From: a virus
Lineage: Duplodnaviria; Heunggongvirae; Uroviricota; Caudoviricetes
Virus record (IMG/VR): IMGVR_UViG_3300045988_019953
Coordinates: 1 to 42,581 of that record
DNA: 42,581 bases
Direction: 5' to 3' (one strand)
In this document: piece after piece, positions 1,090 through 41,243 of the stretch
How the letters are laid out: every line of letters begins with the position of its first letter
Position numbering within the stretch: the first letter of the stretch is position 1
The notes under the pieces: model-generated
What the model saw: the letters and a program-made list of their open reading frames with translations, nothing else
Databases searched by the model: none
Told to the model about the DNA's origin: nothing
Program-made: the position numbers and the translations under genes

Positions 1090-1305
1090 ATGCAACCATC
1101 TGAACTAGGCATCCGTGTAGAACAACGCCGTAAAGAACTCGGCATCTCCCAGCGCCGTCTGGCTGTTCTGACTGGCGTTTCCCAGGGCGCGATTAACCAG
1201 CTGGCACTTGGGGTAACTCAGGACGTCCGACCGGCGACGCTGTTTAAACTGGCGGAAGTGCTGCAAGTAGACGCCAAGTGGCTGGCGTTCGGTGAAGGGG
1301 CTTAA
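1090..1305 (+). CDS. XRE/Cro-like helix-turn-helix transcriptional regulator
   Basis: 71 aa; segment ELGISQRRLAVLTGVSQGAINQL matches the classic XRE HTH pattern; SD AAGGAG upstream. Confidence 0.8.
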   Translation: MQPSELGIRVEQRRKELGISQRRLAVLTGVSQGAINQLALGVTQDVRPATLFKLAEVLQVDAKWLAFGEGA

Positions 1306-4630: not shown

Positions 4631-4659
4631 TTGCACACCCCAATATAATAGGATACTAT
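4631..4659 (+). promoter_or_regulatory. Early promoter TTGCAC-17-TACTAT with dyad AATAG-N4-CTATT (4647-4660)
   Basis: Hexamers with 17-bp spacer; 23-mer nearly identical to those at 15540 and 24940; conserved leader TCACTTATCGAAACGAG. Confidence 0.55.
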
Positions 4660-4693
4660 TCACTTATCGAAACGAGACTGAGGAGTGAGGGTT

Positions 4694-4876
4694 ATGTTTA
4701 AGAAGGGTCAGTTGGTGAAAACAAAGCGCAGCCGGCAACACGTAATAGTTACCAAAGACGAGGATGAATATGGTGTTGTCGCCGTATTTAGCCTTATACG
4801 GAAGAAACGTGGTTATGTTCATCACAATAATTTACAGCTTATCGGCAACAATTTTAAATTCAAAGGGGCGAAGTGA
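4694..4876 (+). CDS. Hypothetical early protein (60 aa)
   Basis: ATG 4694 after AGGAG; track ORF begins at upstream GTG 4685; stop overlaps next start (TGATG). Confidence 0.5.
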   Translation: MFKKGQLVKTKRSRQHVIVTKDEDEYGVVAVFSLIRKKRGYVHHNNLQLIGNNFKFKGAK

Positions 4877-5166
4877 TGGGAGAATTACCTCAATGTGAAC
4901 GCCAGTTCATTAGCTGGTTTATCCCTGTAAATAATTTCAACATTTCTGATTTGCTGGAACTAAGAGAAAAAGGTGCTCTGTGGGTGTGTAACGCCCGAGA
5001 CGTAACAAAGGCCAGGGTATGGAATTTTAGCCTACTGCGTCGCCCTAATAAGTCAGGGGCGGGTGCGGTAACGATGGACTTGTTACATCGCAAAGGTAAG
5101 TTGTTTATGAGAACGGCATCGAATCATGATGCCCGTGCCGACGACTCTGAGGGAGGTTGCCGTTAA
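4876..5166 (+). CDS. Hypothetical protein, paralog A of 15272-15517
   Basis: About 80 percent identical by eye to the minus-strand ORF at 15272-15517; translationally coupled to the upstream gene. Confidence 0.6.
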   Translation: MGELPQCERQFISWFIPVNNFNISDLLELREKGALWVCNARDVTKARVWNFSLLRRPNKSGAGAVTMDLLHRKGKLFMRTASNHDARADDSEGGCR

Positions 5167-5312
5167 TGAGAATTCGTATAACTGATGTTGATTATGTGGA
5201 CCCGCGCGATGGCGACGATTTGTCGCTTAGTTACTGGGGAGTCGCCCTTGGTGATGTGTTTGAGGTTTCCAGGGCCGGTTCCGATATGTTCATTATTGAA
5301 TGTGACGCCTGA
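5166..5312 (+). CDS. Small hypothetical protein (48 aa)
   Basis: ATG overlaps upstream stop (TAATG); below track threshold. Confidence 0.4.
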   Translation: MRIRITDVDYVDPRDGDDLSLSYWGVALGDVFEVSRAGSDMFIIECDA

Positions 5313-5360
5313 TATGTGGTTGTACACTCCTGTGAATGTGAGGTTCTGGAGGACTAAGTT

Positions 5361-5504
5361 ATGAGAGAAGCATTTGAGCGTTGGGCCATCGTCGAGGGTC
5401 TGCCGGTTTACAAGGGTTCGAAGAAAGAGTACCTGAACGTTAAGACCCGTCTCGCGTGGCGGGCGTGGAAAGCTGGTGTGCGAACTGCGATGAATATGGG
5501 GTGA
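5361..5504 (+). CDS. Small hypothetical protein (47 aa)
   Basis: ATG at 5361 preceded by GGAGGA; below track threshold. Confidence 0.4.
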   Translation: MREAFERWAIVEGLPVYKGSKKEYLNVKTRLAWRAWKAGVRTAMNMG

Positions 5505-5507
5505 GAT

Positions 5508-5711
5508 ATGAGTAAGTGGGTTAAGTGTAGTGAGCGGATGTCGGGGCTAGGTCAACCAGTTTTGGTCGTCAGTAGTATGGGTGGCGTGGTCCAGAACAAT
5601 GTGTACGAGTGGGATGGGGTAACTTGGTGTGATTTCCGTGCGGACTACGGGGAACACGCGCAGGAAGTGTTTTCTCACTGGATGCCGTTACCAGAGCCGC
5701 CGGAAGTGTGA
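5508..5711 (+). CDS. DUF551-like small protein
   Basis: 67 aa; C-terminal HWMPLPEPP resembles the DUF551 signature common in phage early regions (from memory). Confidence 0.45.
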   Translation: MSKWVKCSERMSGLGQPVLVVSSMGGVVQNNVYEWDGVTWCDFRADYGEHAQEVFSHWMPLPEPPEV

Positions 5712-5858
5712 TGTTCAATAGTTTGGGATTTTACCGAGTGACTTACGCTGCTACACAGCAGCGTATCATTTTTCTCATTTTTGTTCTATTTCACCAAACG
5801 CAACAATAGAAGCGACTATTGCAGGAGATGCAACAATACAAACCCCAATAAAATGTAC

Positions 5859-5887
5859 TTGCACACTAAGATAGAATAGGCTACTAT
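5859..5887 (+). promoter_or_regulatory. Early promoter TTGCAC-17-TACTAT with dyad AATAG-N4-CTATT (5875-5888)
   Basis: Same architecture as 4631-4659; followed by RBS GAGGAGAG and ATG at 5919. Confidence 0.5.
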
Positions 5888-5918
5888 TCATTTACACGAA
5901 CAAGAGGAGAGACAGAAG

Positions 5919-6047
5919 ATGGAAGATTATAGCGAAGTAACTTTGGGTGAGTTGCAGGACGAGTACGAGGATATGCTCTACCCGTTCATTTGCGACGGGG
6001 ATTACAACGGCGTCTATAACGGGGTGAGCGAAGAATATGAGCACTAA
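5919..6047 (+). CDS. Small highly acidic protein (42 aa), first gene after an early promoter
   Basis: Manual translation MEDYSEVTLGELQDEYEDML...; stop overlaps next gene start; below track threshold. Confidence 0.4.
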   Translation: MEDYSEVTLGELQDEYEDMLYPFICDGDYNGVYNGVSEEYEH

Positions 6048-6483
6048 AAACGAAGTATTCGAGTATCTGATTGACCAACTACGGCAGCAGGTAACTAACA
6101 ACCCTTACAAGCAACAGTGCGAAGACCTGGCGCATGAGGTGCTGTCACTTAAGAATCAGTTACGTGATGCGTCGGCGCAGATTAAGGAGTTGCATAAGGC
6201 GCTGGCCAGAGCTACTGGGGATGTGGAGGCATACAAACTTATCCGTAAAGGTGAGCAATCTGGTTGCCGTAAAGAGGACGTGCCGGAATGCAAGCACGAA
6301 TGGTACTTTTACGATAAAGGTGCTTCGATGATGTGCAGAATATGCGGCTTAAAGAGTCCCGACCGTCAAAAAGAAGATACGCAGGAATGCGAGCATGATT
6401 GGAGGGTAGTGCAGTACTCCGCTGGGGCAGAGATTAATAAGTGCCGACTTTGCGGAGAAGAGAAAGAGGTTCACTACGAATGA
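6037..6483 (+). CDS. Coiled-coil protein with tandem Cys-rich zinc-ribbon-like modules
   Basis: 148 aa; repeated pattern ECKHEW...CRICG and ECEHDW...CRLCG. Confidence 0.55.
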   Translation: MSTKNEVFEYLIDQLRQQVTNNPYKQQCEDLAHEVLSLKNQLRDASAQIKELHKALARATGDVEAYKLIRKGEQSGCRKEDVPECKHEWYFYDKGASMMCRICGLKSPDRQKEDTQECEHDWRVVQYSAGAEINKCRLCGEEKEVHYE

Positions 6484-6683
6484 CCAGCATCTTATTTATC
6501 TGGGTATTGTCTGCGGGCCAGATGCATCTCGCGGCATCAGAAACGTTTTACTCAATGGAGGCGTGCCAGTCAGCGGCACGCGCCGCAGAGAACGCGCACT
6601 TCCTGTTTCAGGGTGACAAGCCTAACGATTCAGAGGTACGCGCTATCTGCTCACCTAAGCGACTTGGTAAACAGGAGAAATGA
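6480..6683 (+). CDS. Small protein with N-terminal signal-peptide-like segment
   Basis: ATG 6480 overlaps upstream stop (ATGA); hydrophobic MTSILFIWVLSAGQMHLAAS; track ORF starts at an upstream alternative codon. Confidence 0.45.
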   Translation: MTSILFIWVLSAGQMHLAASETFYSMEACQSAARAAENAHFLFQGDKPNDSEVRAICSPKRLGKQEK

Positions 6684-6976
6684 TGTCGCTAGCAACTGAC
6701 ATCCTGAAACGAAGCGGCCTTGTGCCGCTGTCACCGAGAGCTAAAACACAGATATACAAGCGCCGAGGTAACGCGCTGTACCCCGAGATTCAGGCCAGGC
6801 GCAAAGCTGTACGCGCCTGCGGGTTCCAGAACGGGAAGGCCGTGAATCTGGGTGAGTTCAAAACAAAGGAACGCGCAGTTATCGCTAATAAGCTATTTAA
6901 TTACTGGAAGTCGTTGGGATACGATGATATTCCATCGAAACCACAGAGACGACAATACATCTGGCGTCATAAATAA
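6680..6976 (+). CDS. Hypothetical basic protein
   Basis: 98-aa ORF in track, coupled to the upstream gene. Confidence 0.5.
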   Translation: MMSLATDILKRSGLVPLSPRAKTQIYKRRGNALYPEIQARRKAVRACGFQNGKAVNLGEFKTKERAVIANKLFNYWKSLGYDDIPSKPQRRQYIWRHK

Positions 6977-7051: not shown

Positions 7052-7360
7052 TTGGATAAATTTACTGAAACAGTGACGGGGTGGCTTCTGGCTGCCGCTC
7101 TAGCTGGTGGGGTAATCGGTCTACGACAACATAAGTCCGTTATTTCCGGCCCTATCGACGGCTTCTGCTTTATCGCAACTGGCTTCACTTGCGCCGTATT
7201 TGGCGCACCTCTCGCATCTCAATGGTTCGGTATCACGGGCGAGCGCGAGATAGCCGGGTTGGGCTTCATTATTGCTATTCTCTGGATGCCTATCTATTCC
7301 CGTCTCTCCGGTATCGTCGCCGGAGAATACATCGCGCGTCGAGGAGGCACAGATGAATGA
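7052..7360 (+). CDS. Putative holin (multi-TM membrane protein)
   Basis: 102 aa with several hydrophobic segments; TTG start 6 nt after GGAGGA; directly upstream of endolysin. Confidence 0.5.
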   Translation: MDKFTETVTGWLLAAALAGGVIGLRQHKSVISGPIDGFCFIATGFTCAVFGAPLASQWFGITGEREIAGLGFIIAILWMPIYSRLSGIVAGEYIARRGGTDE

Positions 7361-7625
7361 ATTATTCTGGTTCGGCGGTATGCTGGCAATCGGAGGCACA
7401 TCGCTGTTTAATGTGTATCACCCCGGCGTGGACGACGGTCTATTTGGCCGGGTGCTCTATATCCTGACCACTATCGTCTGTGCCGCCGGGTGTATCCACC
7501 TGTTACAGGGCAGCATGTCACCGACGCTGCCGGAGACATTAATCGCATTAGTTGCGCTGCGACAGATTCGTCAGGCGTGGCTGTCATACGGAGGACATAA
7601 GCGTGTCTCGAAACATTTCAGATAA
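7353..7625 (+). CDS. Second small membrane protein (holin/antiholin-like)
   Basis: ATG 7353 after GAGGAGG, overlapping upstream stop; two hydrophobic segments; track lists a longer 7272 start. Confidence 0.45.
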   Translation: MNELFWFGGMLAIGGTSLFNVYHPGVDDGLFGRVLYILTTIVCAAGCIHLLQGSMSPTLPETLIALVALRQIRQAWLSYGGHKRVSKHFR

Positions 7626-8106
7626 TGGATTGCATTTTACCGCCGCGTTTGAGGGATTCCGCGGAACTGCATACAAAGCAACAAAGAACGAAAAATACTG
7701 GACTATAGGCTGGGGTCATACCGGGCCGGATGTGTATGAAGGACAGAAGATTACTGAGGGTCAGGGGCTACTGTTGCTGAACCGTGATATGCGGTGGGCT
7801 GTGAAAGCAGTCGACGAGGTAGCACACCCCTCACTGACCCAAGCCCAGTTTGATGCCGTTGTCGACCTGGTGTTCAACGCAGGACCCGGCGTTATCGCGG
7901 CCAACACCGGAACCGGTAAGGCACTACGGCAGGGAGACATCTCCACCTTACGGCATAAGTTGAGCCAGTTCATCAACCAACGCAACCCGAAAACGGGCAA
8001 ACTCGAGCCTGTTCTCGGCCTGCGTCGCCGGACCGCCGGGCGTCTGGCGCTGTTCGACGGTAAACCGTGGCAAGAGGCTGAGGCTATCGGGAGGGCTGTT
8101 AAATGA
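7603..8106 (+). CDS. Endolysin, lysozyme-like (GH24-type) muramidase
   Basis: Motif EGFRGTAYKATKNEKYWTIGWGHTG; likely GTG start 7603 after GGAGGA rather than track ATG 7552. Confidence 0.8.
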   Translation: MSRNISDNGLHFTAAFEGFRGTAYKATKNEKYWTIGWGHTGPDVYEGQKITEGQGLLLLNRDMRWAVKAVDEVAHPSLTQAQFDAVVDLVFNAGPGVIAANTGTGKALRQGDISTLRHKLSQFINQRNPKTGKLEPVLGLRRRTAGRLALFDGKPWQEAEAIGRAVK

Positions 8107-15272: not shown

Positions 15273-15517
15273 TATCGCACTCTCATAAATAGCTTACCTT
15301 TGCGCTGTAACAAATCCATGCCAACAGCACCTTCACCAGATTTGTTCGGGCGGCGCATTAAACTAAAGTTCCATACTCTAGCTTTTGAAGCATCTTTCGC
15401 GTTGCACACCCAAAGTCTACCGCTTTCTCTTAGGTCAAATAAGTCCGATATACTGAAATTATTAACTGGTATGAATCCGCTAATGAACTCACGTTCACAA
15501 CTAGGTAATTCTTGCAT
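15272..15517 (-). CDS. Hypothetical protein, paralog B of 4876-5166
   Basis: 81 aa; ATG 15515-15517 with GGAGGG RBS; about 80 percent identical by eye to paralog A. Confidence 0.6.
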   Translation of the reverse strand: MQELPSCEREFISGFIPVNNFSISDLFDLRESGRLWVCNAKDASKARVWNFSLMRRPNKSGEGAVGMDLLQRKGKLFMRVR

Positions 15518-15543
15518 ACACCCTCCTCGTTTCGATGTAATGA

Positions 15544-15572
15544 ATAGTACCCTATTATATTGGTGTCTGCAA
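15544..15572 (-). promoter_or_regulatory. Early-type promoter on minus strand (TTGCAG-17-TACTAT) with dyad AATAG-N4-CTATT (15543-15556)
   Basis: 23-mer identical to 24940-24962 and a 1-mismatch reverse complement of 4639-4661; leader matches early promoter leaders. Confidence 0.55.
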
Positions 15573-24913: not shown

Positions 24914-24943
24914 TTTAAACCCCTTCATTGTTGGTGTAAGTGA

Positions 24944-41214: not shown

Positions 41215-41243
41215 ACTATAATAGCTTGCTATTCAGGTGTCAA
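41215..41243 (-). promoter_or_regulatory. Leftward promoter TTGACA-17-TATAGT with dyad AATAG-N4-CTATT (41220-41233)
   Basis: Hexamers and dyad read in sequence; between exonuclease stop and SSB-like start. Confidence 0.5.

Follow-up and report, generated by a model that had tools for sequence, protein, structure and literature searches.

An acidic 42-residue miniprotein encoded in a hypervariable, promoter-proximal slot of Kagunavirus-type phages

Results

Setting and sequence of the miniprotein gene

The virus record IMGVR_UViG_3300045988_019953 (Caudoviricetes), analysed here over its whole length of 42,581 nucleotides (nt) and referred to as the window, is a 42.6-kb Kagunavirus-type siphophage genome (Guernseyvirinae), and the subject of this study is a small open reading frame (ORF) at 5919-6047 on its plus strand, together with the promoter-type element that precedes it and the gene that overlaps its 3' end. 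Queried with 2.5 kb around the ORF, GenBank yielded 284 phage records with 80-95% identity, led by the Escherichia phages vB-Eco-KMB35, ST20 and BASEL Bas72. The ORF lies within a rightward cluster of small genes (4685-6976), which is followed by holin and endolysin genes (7052-8106) and then by the terminase and structural genes.

From its ATG at 5919 to its TAA at 6045-6047, the ORF comprises 42 codons and specifies the product MEDYSEVTLGELQDEYEDMLYPFICDGDYNGVYNGVSEEYEH, which contains 13 acidic residues (8 Glu and 5 Asp), 6 Tyr and a single His but neither Lys nor Arg, so that its charge at pH 7 is approximately -13, or -0.31 per residue. An earlier note on this DNA had described the ORF as encoding a very acidic protein of 42 amino acids (aa) dominated by Asp, Glu and Tyr, and this description holds in full: the exact sequence was confirmed, and the protein tops the acidity ranking of the window's six-frame ORFs of 35 aa or more (356 in all), in which the second-ranked ORF reaches -0.145 per residue. 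We refer to this coding sequence as allele A of the Y-T-Y-CDGD family, which is defined below. The window's 42-mer is the most acidic variant of the allele, because it has Glu at position 2, a residue seen only in this copy, where the others carry Lys or Arg. A Shine-Dalgarno (SD) sequence, AGAGGAG, can be read from the sequence at 5903-5909 on the plus strand, 9 nt before the ATG, and the SD region, GAGAGGAGAGA, is retained in relatives.

At its 3' end the ORF meets a gene for a 148-aa protein (6037-6483, plus strand; PHROG 6094), hereafter the anchor gene, which begins with an ATG inside the final 11 nt of the miniprotein ORF. Since the stop of the one overlaps the start of the other, the two are translationally coupled, and a stop/start overlap of 8-11 nt is preserved for alleles A, B and C. 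The window's anchor protein combines an N-terminal coiled coil with two E-C-x-H-x-W...C-x-x-C-G zinc-ribbon-like modules.

A catalogued gene under purifying selection

Sequence comparison with relatives identifies 5919-6047 as a genuine gene under strong purifying selection. Among ten copies of allele A, the ratio of nonsynonymous to synonymous substitution rates (dN/dS, Nei-Gojobori) is 0.058 at a dS of 0.31, and the variable sites fall 6/4/17 on the first, second and third codon positions; within alleles B and C the ratios are 0.26 and 0.24, with third-position changes in excess. Allele A was found by tblastn in 26 GenBank phage records at 90-98% identity and at the same genomic position, and its coding sequence is annotated by depositors as a hypothetical protein in phages ST20 (ASH99348.1), 590B (QVR48612.1), phiSD1 (XPO97431.1) and L AB-2017. 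Phages NTEC3 and vB_Eco_K1B4 likewise carry allele A. The earlier note had held that a lack of conservation in relatives would speak against its proposal, and homologues are indeed present in relatives.

The 42-mer also matches, from end to end, PHROG 35344, a family to which no function is assigned (E 2.9e-32 and 111.5 bits, with residues 1-42 aligned to positions 1-42 of the 42-position profile). PHROG 35344 and the hypothetical proteins in GenBank represent the same protein as the window's 42-mer, without record of its kinship with alleles B and C, of the copy in Drexlerviridae or of the structure of the slot in which the gene lies. As such, it is an already catalogued, uncharacterised ORFan, whose membership in a wider family is newly established here.

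A narrow family of phage miniproteins

The divergent alleles first showed as weak tblastn matches at the same genomic position. The Y-T-Y-CDGD family as we define it comprises alleles A, B and C together with a St162-type and a BEK2-type form, with members of 35-48 aa that share the signature Y..T.xEL..Y...VCDGD..VY; the window's 42-mer carries Tyr4, Thr8, Leu12, Tyr16 and the V/I24-Cys25-x-Gly27-Asp28 segment, and is net negative. Allele B (45 aa, MGWYGSWTLGELVDAYEIMGSTSVCDGDTK...) is found in fBC-Eco01, Bas71 and K1H, allele C (39 aa, MYKYLTVEKLEQLYAELRVCSVCSGDNEHVYGE...) in Schulenburg, Bas74 and, at approximately 52% identity, in many Salmonella Jerseyviruses, and the St162 form has 40 aa.

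Aligned with one another, alleles A, B and C are 28-46% identical, and between them synonymous sites are saturated (proportion of synonymous differences, pS, 0.76-0.91), yet the residue pattern is retained. Y4, T8, Y16, V/I24, C25, G27 and D28 are conserved at 83-99%, and a hydrophobic periodicity runs through family positions 9, 12, 16 and 19. Single acidic positions are conserved at only 45-65%; the net charge is always negative, with a median of -7 and values of -5 or below in 63 of the 69 members. Against the family hidden Markov model (HMM), the window's protein scores 71 bits, the St162 form 69.5 and the BEK2 form 44.5. The last is an unannotated 36-aa protein, MTSYGSYTLGELYDAYYSWGSASECDADTKAVIIED, of the T1-like phage BEK2 (Drexlerviridae; locus L040, 1501-1611), where it precedes a gene unrelated to the anchor gene; BEK3 and phiA2-1 carry the same type. 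An annotated 50-aa ORF near the BEK2 member shows a similar ...YGDTFECDGDNLEVL motif, with a non-significant score of 11 bits.

A profile search of 5.8 billion proteins returned 81 clusters, nearly all of 33-48 aa, the long contigs among them measuring approximately 40-45 kb. Searched exhaustively with the HMM, 1.84 billion representatives yielded no more than 23 clusters at an E of 1e-3 or lower and no distant homologues outside phage miniproteins. Long proteins matched by the HMM (414-2432 aa, in multiple stretches) were rejected as repeat proteins that match the CDGD/aromatic segment and are not homologues, and the proteins P0082 and P0084 were set aside as apparent chimeric assemblies. In GenBank phage records, allele A occurs 26 times, allele B 30 times and C-like forms 63 times, against 315 records with the anchor gene (approximately 40%). 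By these sequence searches, the family is narrow, restricted to phages and common to Guernseyvirinae and T1-like phages.

Predicted structure

The sequence pattern, namely a T-x-x-E cap, an amphipathic acidic helix, a V-C-D-G-D segment and a V-Y-G segment, suggests a fold of one helix followed by a hairpin. AlphaFold2, run on a 69-sequence alignment, gave a mean predicted local distance difference test (pLDDT) value of 64, with a helix at residues 9-19 predicted at approximately 80 and the C-terminal third below 50. Pfam-A held no family for the 42-mer at E up to 1 and, for the whole set of 69 members with the limit raised to E 10, returned noise only; NCBIfam gave no match, a sequence search of the PDB with the family profile found no chain, and a Foldseek comparison of the 42-mer model with the PDB gave no matches. 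Two further roles were set aside without a dedicated test: zinc binding by the 42-mer, with only one Cys conserved, and a precursor of a ribosomally synthesized and post-translationally modified peptide, with no modifying enzyme nearby.

A hypervariable slot upstream of the anchor gene

When 31 related loci were compared, anchored on the downstream gene, the position upstream of that gene proved hypervariable, holding allele A, B or C, tandem small ORFs, unrelated ORFs or nothing. At least five unrelated small ORFs, mostly acidic, occupy the slot besides the family studied here, including a 72-aa ORF of net charge -15 (Bas74 and loci L020 and L024), a zinc-ribbon ORF of approximately 71 aa and helical ORFs of 51-58 aa. 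Nearly all slot occupants end in Gly/Asp/Glu-rich tails, because the ribosome-binding region of the anchor gene sits in their 3' end. In St162, a 32-aa ORF lies between the family member and the anchor gene.

Deletions at microhomologies are frequent in the slot region. In phages P AB-2017 (L035) and LF7074P3 (L036), the family member is fused in frame to the anchor protein (401-926 of either locus), running from ...NGVSE to approximately anchor residue 30, and the fusion is annotated in P AB-2017 as one coding sequence, P_44; the junction is a 7-nt microhomology, GCGAAGA, which occurs in the window at 6028-6034 and 6119-6125. Other fusions use other partners: in P0060 the 42-mer continues into a zinc-ribbon module, with the junction placed elsewhere, in P0076 the family member is joined to the gene after the anchor, and in P0080 to an upstream 56-aa gene. 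Because the partners differ, we regard these fusions as by-products of recombination, and we rejected them as specific Rosetta-stone support for a tie to the anchor, since members of the family occur fused to other neighbours as well.

A repeated promoter-type element precedes the gene

Upstream of the ORF, an intrinsic-terminator-like hairpin on the plus strand (5744-5765; 9-bp stem with 5 GC pairs and a T-run, the T-rich tail reaching 5783) closes the preceding transcription unit, whose last gene is a DUF551 gene at 5508-5711. The terminator segment is kept in relatives, and its spurious reading 'TYAATQQRIIFLIFVLFHQTQQ' recurs across many loci. A phage-specific promoter-type element, CTTGCACAC..ATAGAATAGGCTACTATTCATTTACAC (5858-5898, plus strand), follows, in which a putative -35 hexamer TTGCAC (5859-5864) is separated by a conserved 17-nt spacer from a putative -10 hexamer TACTAT (5882-5887). 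This arrangement agrees with the sigma-70 consensus at 7 of 12 positions, including the TTG and the TAnnnT, and was not called by a generic sigma-70 scan. It belongs to a longer element of approximately 36 nt, CTTGCrCAC....ATAkAATAGGnTACTATTCAnTTAC, the exact core of which occurs four times in the window, at 4631 and 5859 on the plus strand and at 15544 and 24944 on the minus strand. The 20-nt core has seven matches at up to three mismatches, against none in 100 shuffles, and all four exact copies are followed on the same strand by an SD sequence and an ATG 25-35 nt downstream.

The element is retained before alleles A, B and C in relatives with different sequence further upstream; in more distant loci the -35 hexamer is TTGACG or TTGACA, with the spacing unchanged at 17 nt, and in the fBC-Eco01 record the 20-nt core bears its depositors' label of a 'phage promoter' found with PHIRE. 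With hexamers spaced 17 nt apart, inside the usual 16-18 nt, conservation in relatives and a position before a gene, the element has the features of a sigma-70-type promoter, and we infer that it acts as one. The promoter that the earlier note placed at 5859-5887 is therefore backed by repetition, conservation and proximity to a gene, and tempered by the weak consensus match and by the silence of the sigma-70 scan. The claim that the 42-aa ORF is the first gene after the promoter is well supported by the repeated, conserved element and by the upstream terminator.

The early timing that the earlier note ascribed to this promoter does not share that support. On the plus strand, no intrinsic terminator was predicted between the element and the lysis and structural genes; the unit may just as well form the start of a long transcript running rightward. 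The sole Kagunavirus RNA-seq study that we found (vB_Eco_K1B4, PMC12645636) uses a 57-gene Glimmer annotation that contains neither the 42-aa gene nor the anchor gene, calls a 114-nt ORF in another frame over the junction of the two (Table S2; approximately 8.2-8.8 kb) and identifies by name a single one of the four genes that it classes as 'early'. Because that annotation misses both genes, its temporal classes are inapplicable to the locus.

Plating of related phages on restricting and Old-expressing hosts

Published plating data of the BASEL collection (PMC11990801, S1 Data) bear on restriction and cover the sister alleles B (Bas71) and C (Bas74), not allele A. Kagunavirus isolates are reported there to 'display a high sensitivity to RM systems', RM standing for restriction-modification. 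Bas71 plated with an efficiency of plating (EOP) of 0.9-3e-5 on EcoKI and 2-7e-4 on EcoCFT_I, both type I systems, of 2-4e-5 on EcoRI and 5e-8 to 9e-6 on EcoRV, and of 1-7e-6 on EcoCFT_II and 0.9-2e-5 on EcoPI (PMC11990801). For Bas74, the EOP was 2e-5 to 1.2e-1 over five RM systems, with 3e-3 to 4e-2 on EcoCFT_I, and the values of Bas70 and Bas72, in which the slot holds no family member, overlap the range of Bas71 and Bas74 (PMC11990801). The earlier note had pointed, by analogy, to DNA mimics that block restriction; this role is not borne out, as BASEL Kagunaviruses with alleles B or C are restricted, by factors of 10^2 to 10^7, like those without the gene in the slot.

The same study reports plating on cells carrying the P2 Old defence. 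On a common host, the two phages without a family member in the slot were essentially insensitive, with EOPs of 0.19-1.4 (Bas70) and 0.29-1.2 (Bas72), Bas71 with allele B was mildly sensitive (0.04-0.29), and Bas73 formed no plaques (PMC11990801). The slot of Bas73 holds a 37-mer of net charge -12 (Bas73_0063) that shares only the CDGD half with the family and scores 15 bits against the family HMM, a half-relative at best.

Neighbouring features

The other copies of the promoter-type element lie at 4631-4662 (plus strand), upstream of a 63-aa gene at 4685-4876; at 15541-15572 (minus strand), upstream of an 81-aa ORF at 15517-15272; and at 24941-24972 (minus strand), upstream of a 68-aa membrane-like ORF at 24928-24722 and of minus-strand genes for 384 and 166 aa. 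Degenerate copies were found on the plus strand at 997-1016, 1042-1061 and 41216-41235. The copies head units of small accessory genes, two of them antisense within the structural region. The 17-nt spacer of the element is unusually conserved and holds a second TATAAT-like hexamer (ATAkAATAGG), and this conservation suggests an operator for a phage regulator that overlaps the promoter. A candidate regulator of the repeated element, judged from its sequence, is a 71-aa DicA/XRE-type helix-turn-helix protein (1090-1305, plus strand; NCBIfam PRK09706, E 9e-12), whose gene lies between minus-strand replication genes, with two degenerate element copies upstream and a terminator at 1294-1314 downstream.

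The window also contains a 237-nt inverted repeat (4876-5112 on the plus strand and 15281-15517 on the minus strand), 75% complementary and with arms approximately 10 kb apart, which encodes paralogous proteins of 97 and 81 aa with 79% identity and no family match; the 81-aa paralogue stands directly behind an element copy, amid the structural genes. Across the terminator hairpin and T-run, which are conserved (equivalent window positions 5708-5809), several GenBank records carry an annotated 'hypothetical protein' of 33-42 aa (..TYAATQQRIIFLIFVLFHQTQQSKRLL..), such as Bas72_0062 (L043, 90-203), Bas74_0060 (L041, 865-966) and Bas73_0061 (L044, 232-360), and annotations of this type are probably mis-calls. 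Rfam gave no match over 5650-6150 on either strand.

The anchor family (PHROG 6094) is exceptionally diverse, with 1,335 clusters at 90% identity; in it, a near-invariant N-terminal coiled coil of 75 residues (pLDDT 82-94) precedes shuffled zinc-ribbon-like modules, which number one to four. In a fold comparison with the PDB, nothing significant matched the anchor model (pLDDT 74), and what appeared were local similarities to zinc ribbons with E above 0.5. The E-C-x-H-x-W...C-x-x-C-G module also occurs in other small slot ORFs and fused to DUF551, and the names 'TolA-binding', 'cell division protein' and 'chromosome segregation ATPase' given to anchor proteins look like coiled-coil artefacts. 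The gene after the anchor (6480-6683, plus strand), joined to it by an ATGA stop/start overlap and situated upstream of the holin genes, encodes 67 aa, of which the N-terminal part is hydrophobic (MTSILFIWVLSAGQMHLAAS...) and may be a signal peptide or a membrane anchor.

Discussion

The explanation that we favour, and whose chance of being right we would put at about even, is that 5919-6047 is a translated accessory gene in a promoter-proximal, coupled and swap-prone slot, and that its product is an acidic helix-hairpin binder or decoy of a basic protein surface and not a restriction blocker of the Ocr/ArdA type. The gene would be expressed as the promoter-proximal cistron under the phage-specific sigma-70-type element, with the next gene translationally coupled to it, and it would reside in a recombination-prone accessory slot, in which other phages hold other alleles, unrelated small acidic ORFs or none. 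Within the peptide, one amphipathic acidic helix (approximately residues 8-20, with the T-x-x-E cap) would be followed by a hairpin around the invariant V/I-C-D-G-D turn. Its acidic surface would then bind and mask a basic surface of some protein of the host or the phage, in the most plausible case a surface that binds nucleic acid, the peptide acting stoichiometrically and the hydrophobic and aromatic face conferring specificity, so that it could serve as an inhibitor or decoy in the manner of small acidic phage proteins. The fold beyond the helix, the mode of binding and the target are what we infer in this scheme.

The setting resembles the 'moron'-type accessory slots of virulent phages in that conserved flanks, here the promoter element and the anchor gene, enclose interchangeable small and mostly acidic ORFs, and in that recombination at microhomologies is frequent; such slots hold, as a general concept, small anti-defence and host-takeover genes. 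Several observations weigh against the binder or decoy proposal. The AlphaFold2 prediction is weak for the helix-hairpin fold and for the charge pattern, and binding to a basic protein surface is a generic function, based on composition and analogy. The acidity of the C-terminus may in part be incidental, a consequence of the ribosome-binding region of the anchor gene. In addition, the gene is dispensable, being absent from approximately 60% of anchor-bearing genomes, and its role might be marginal or host-specific.

Among the alternatives, a mere leader ORF that loads ribosomes for the anchor gene, or a spurious ORF, would fit the very short length, the strong SD in front of an ORF whose 3' end embeds the downstream start, and the ability of unrelated ORFs to occupy the same position. 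It is nevertheless hardly credible: a pure leader role is contradicted by the dN/dS of approximately 0.06, which denotes strong purifying selection on the amino acid sequence, and the residue pattern is kept across two phage families despite saturated synonymous sites. A restriction-blocking DNA mimic similar to Ocr or ArdA, proposed by analogy, is likewise very unlikely. The extreme negative charge, the promoter-proximal position and the acidity kept throughout the family recall these proteins, as T7 Ocr and ArdA are strongly acidic and T7 gene 0.3, like the 42-aa ORF, is the first gene after its promoter. However, Ocr and ArdA are two to four times larger than the 42-mer, which has no sequence or profile similarity to them, and the helix predicted for the 42-mer spans only approximately 11 residues. 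The elongated, usually dimeric structure of such proteins, with carboxylates that mimic the phosphate pattern of B-DNA, is neither supported nor contradicted by the 42-mer model, which is confident only at this helix. The invariant family positions are aromatic, hydrophobic or turn residues and not acidic ones, and neither a Pfam-A family nor a PDB chain was found, the latter by the family profile. By the plating data, Ocr-like anti-restriction is disfavoured because phages with alleles B or C are fully sensitive to restriction of types I, II and III, Bas71 and Bas74 being restricted by every RM system tested, with the qualification that these are sister alleles and that allele A is the most acidic. 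Small size with very high negative charge density, the general trait of DNA mimics, is present in the 42-mer, a necessary property but far from sufficient, and its mimicry may be aimed at another DNA-binding protein.

It is rather unlikely that the miniprotein is a dedicated partner of the downstream coiled-coil/zinc-ribbon protein, whether as a regulatory subunit, an antagonist or an assembly factor. The preserved overlap of 8-11 nt for three alleles and the natural in-frame fusions in P AB-2017, LF7074P3 and P0060 speak for such a partnership, but the downstream gene occurs without a family member in approximately 60% of genomes, the BEK2 member stands before an unrelated gene, an ORF intervenes in St162, and fusions join family members to other neighbours too (P0076 and P0080). 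A different proposal, which we consider unlikely, is an inhibitor of RecBCD or of another host complex that binds DNA ends, similar to gp5.9 or Gam, which as a side effect triggers the P2 Old-type abortive defence. T7 gp5.9, a DNA mimic and RecBCD inhibitor with approximately 49 ordered residues and a pI of 4.0, is similarly tiny and acidic, and likenesses extend to a length of roughly 50 aa, a pI of approximately 4, a phage origin and a partly helical structure with a short beta element (PMC9836394). Gam or gp5.9 expressed alone is toxic in Old+ cells (preprint 10.64898/2026.07.10.737580), the Old EOPs of four BASEL phages on one host rank with the family-like occupant of the slot, and no RecBCD inhibitor was recognised among the few genes of the phage that were examined with family scans. 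Against this, the comparison has n=4 and is confounded by phylogeny, it includes Bas73_0063 with its 15 bits, and Bas76, without a member in the slot, was moderately Old-sensitive, with an EOP of 0.003-0.01 on a different host background (PMC11990801). Old activation is reported as not strictly RecBCD-dependent. Structurally, gp5.9 is a long dimeric parallel coiled coil over nearly its full length (PMC9836394), in contrast to the 42-mer, in which the short helix at 9-19 would be followed by a conserved Gly/Pro-containing turn according to a low-confidence prediction. Unlike gp5.9, the 42-mer gene is accessory and not fixed in its phage group, and one would hardly expect a RecBCD shield to be missing from approximately 60% of related genomes, unless its task there falls to other genes. 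The relation of Old sensitivity to slot content is compatible with a gp5.9-like activity, and is only a lead.

Carried to its furthest extent, this lead would make the Y-T-Y-CDGD miniproteins a new, minimal structural class of acidic decoys, shared by Guernseyvirinae and T1-like Drexlerviridae, that inhibit RecBCD or another surveillance complex binding DNA ends or DNA, with the presence and allele of the gene setting whether Old is triggered, and with the slot as an arms-race locus in which unrelated acidic miniproteins are interchangeable. We regard this extended proposal as a long shot and offer it as a speculation next to the binder or decoy function that we favour.

Kagunavirus and other small siphoviruses are being taken up as chassis for synthetic biology and therapy, for example phage CM001 (PMC11990801). 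CM001 carries allele A at 95% identity, and most of the small promoter-proximal genes of such phages are unannotated or merely hypothetical. The 42-residue peptide is a compact target in this respect, being easy to synthesise or express and available in natural alleles, with phenotyped BASEL phages at hand both with and without the gene. Should the Old/RecBCD lead fail, which would be nothing unusual, the 42-aa gene would simply add to the conserved accessory ORFans; if true, the lead would identify what makes some small siphoviruses Old-sensitive.

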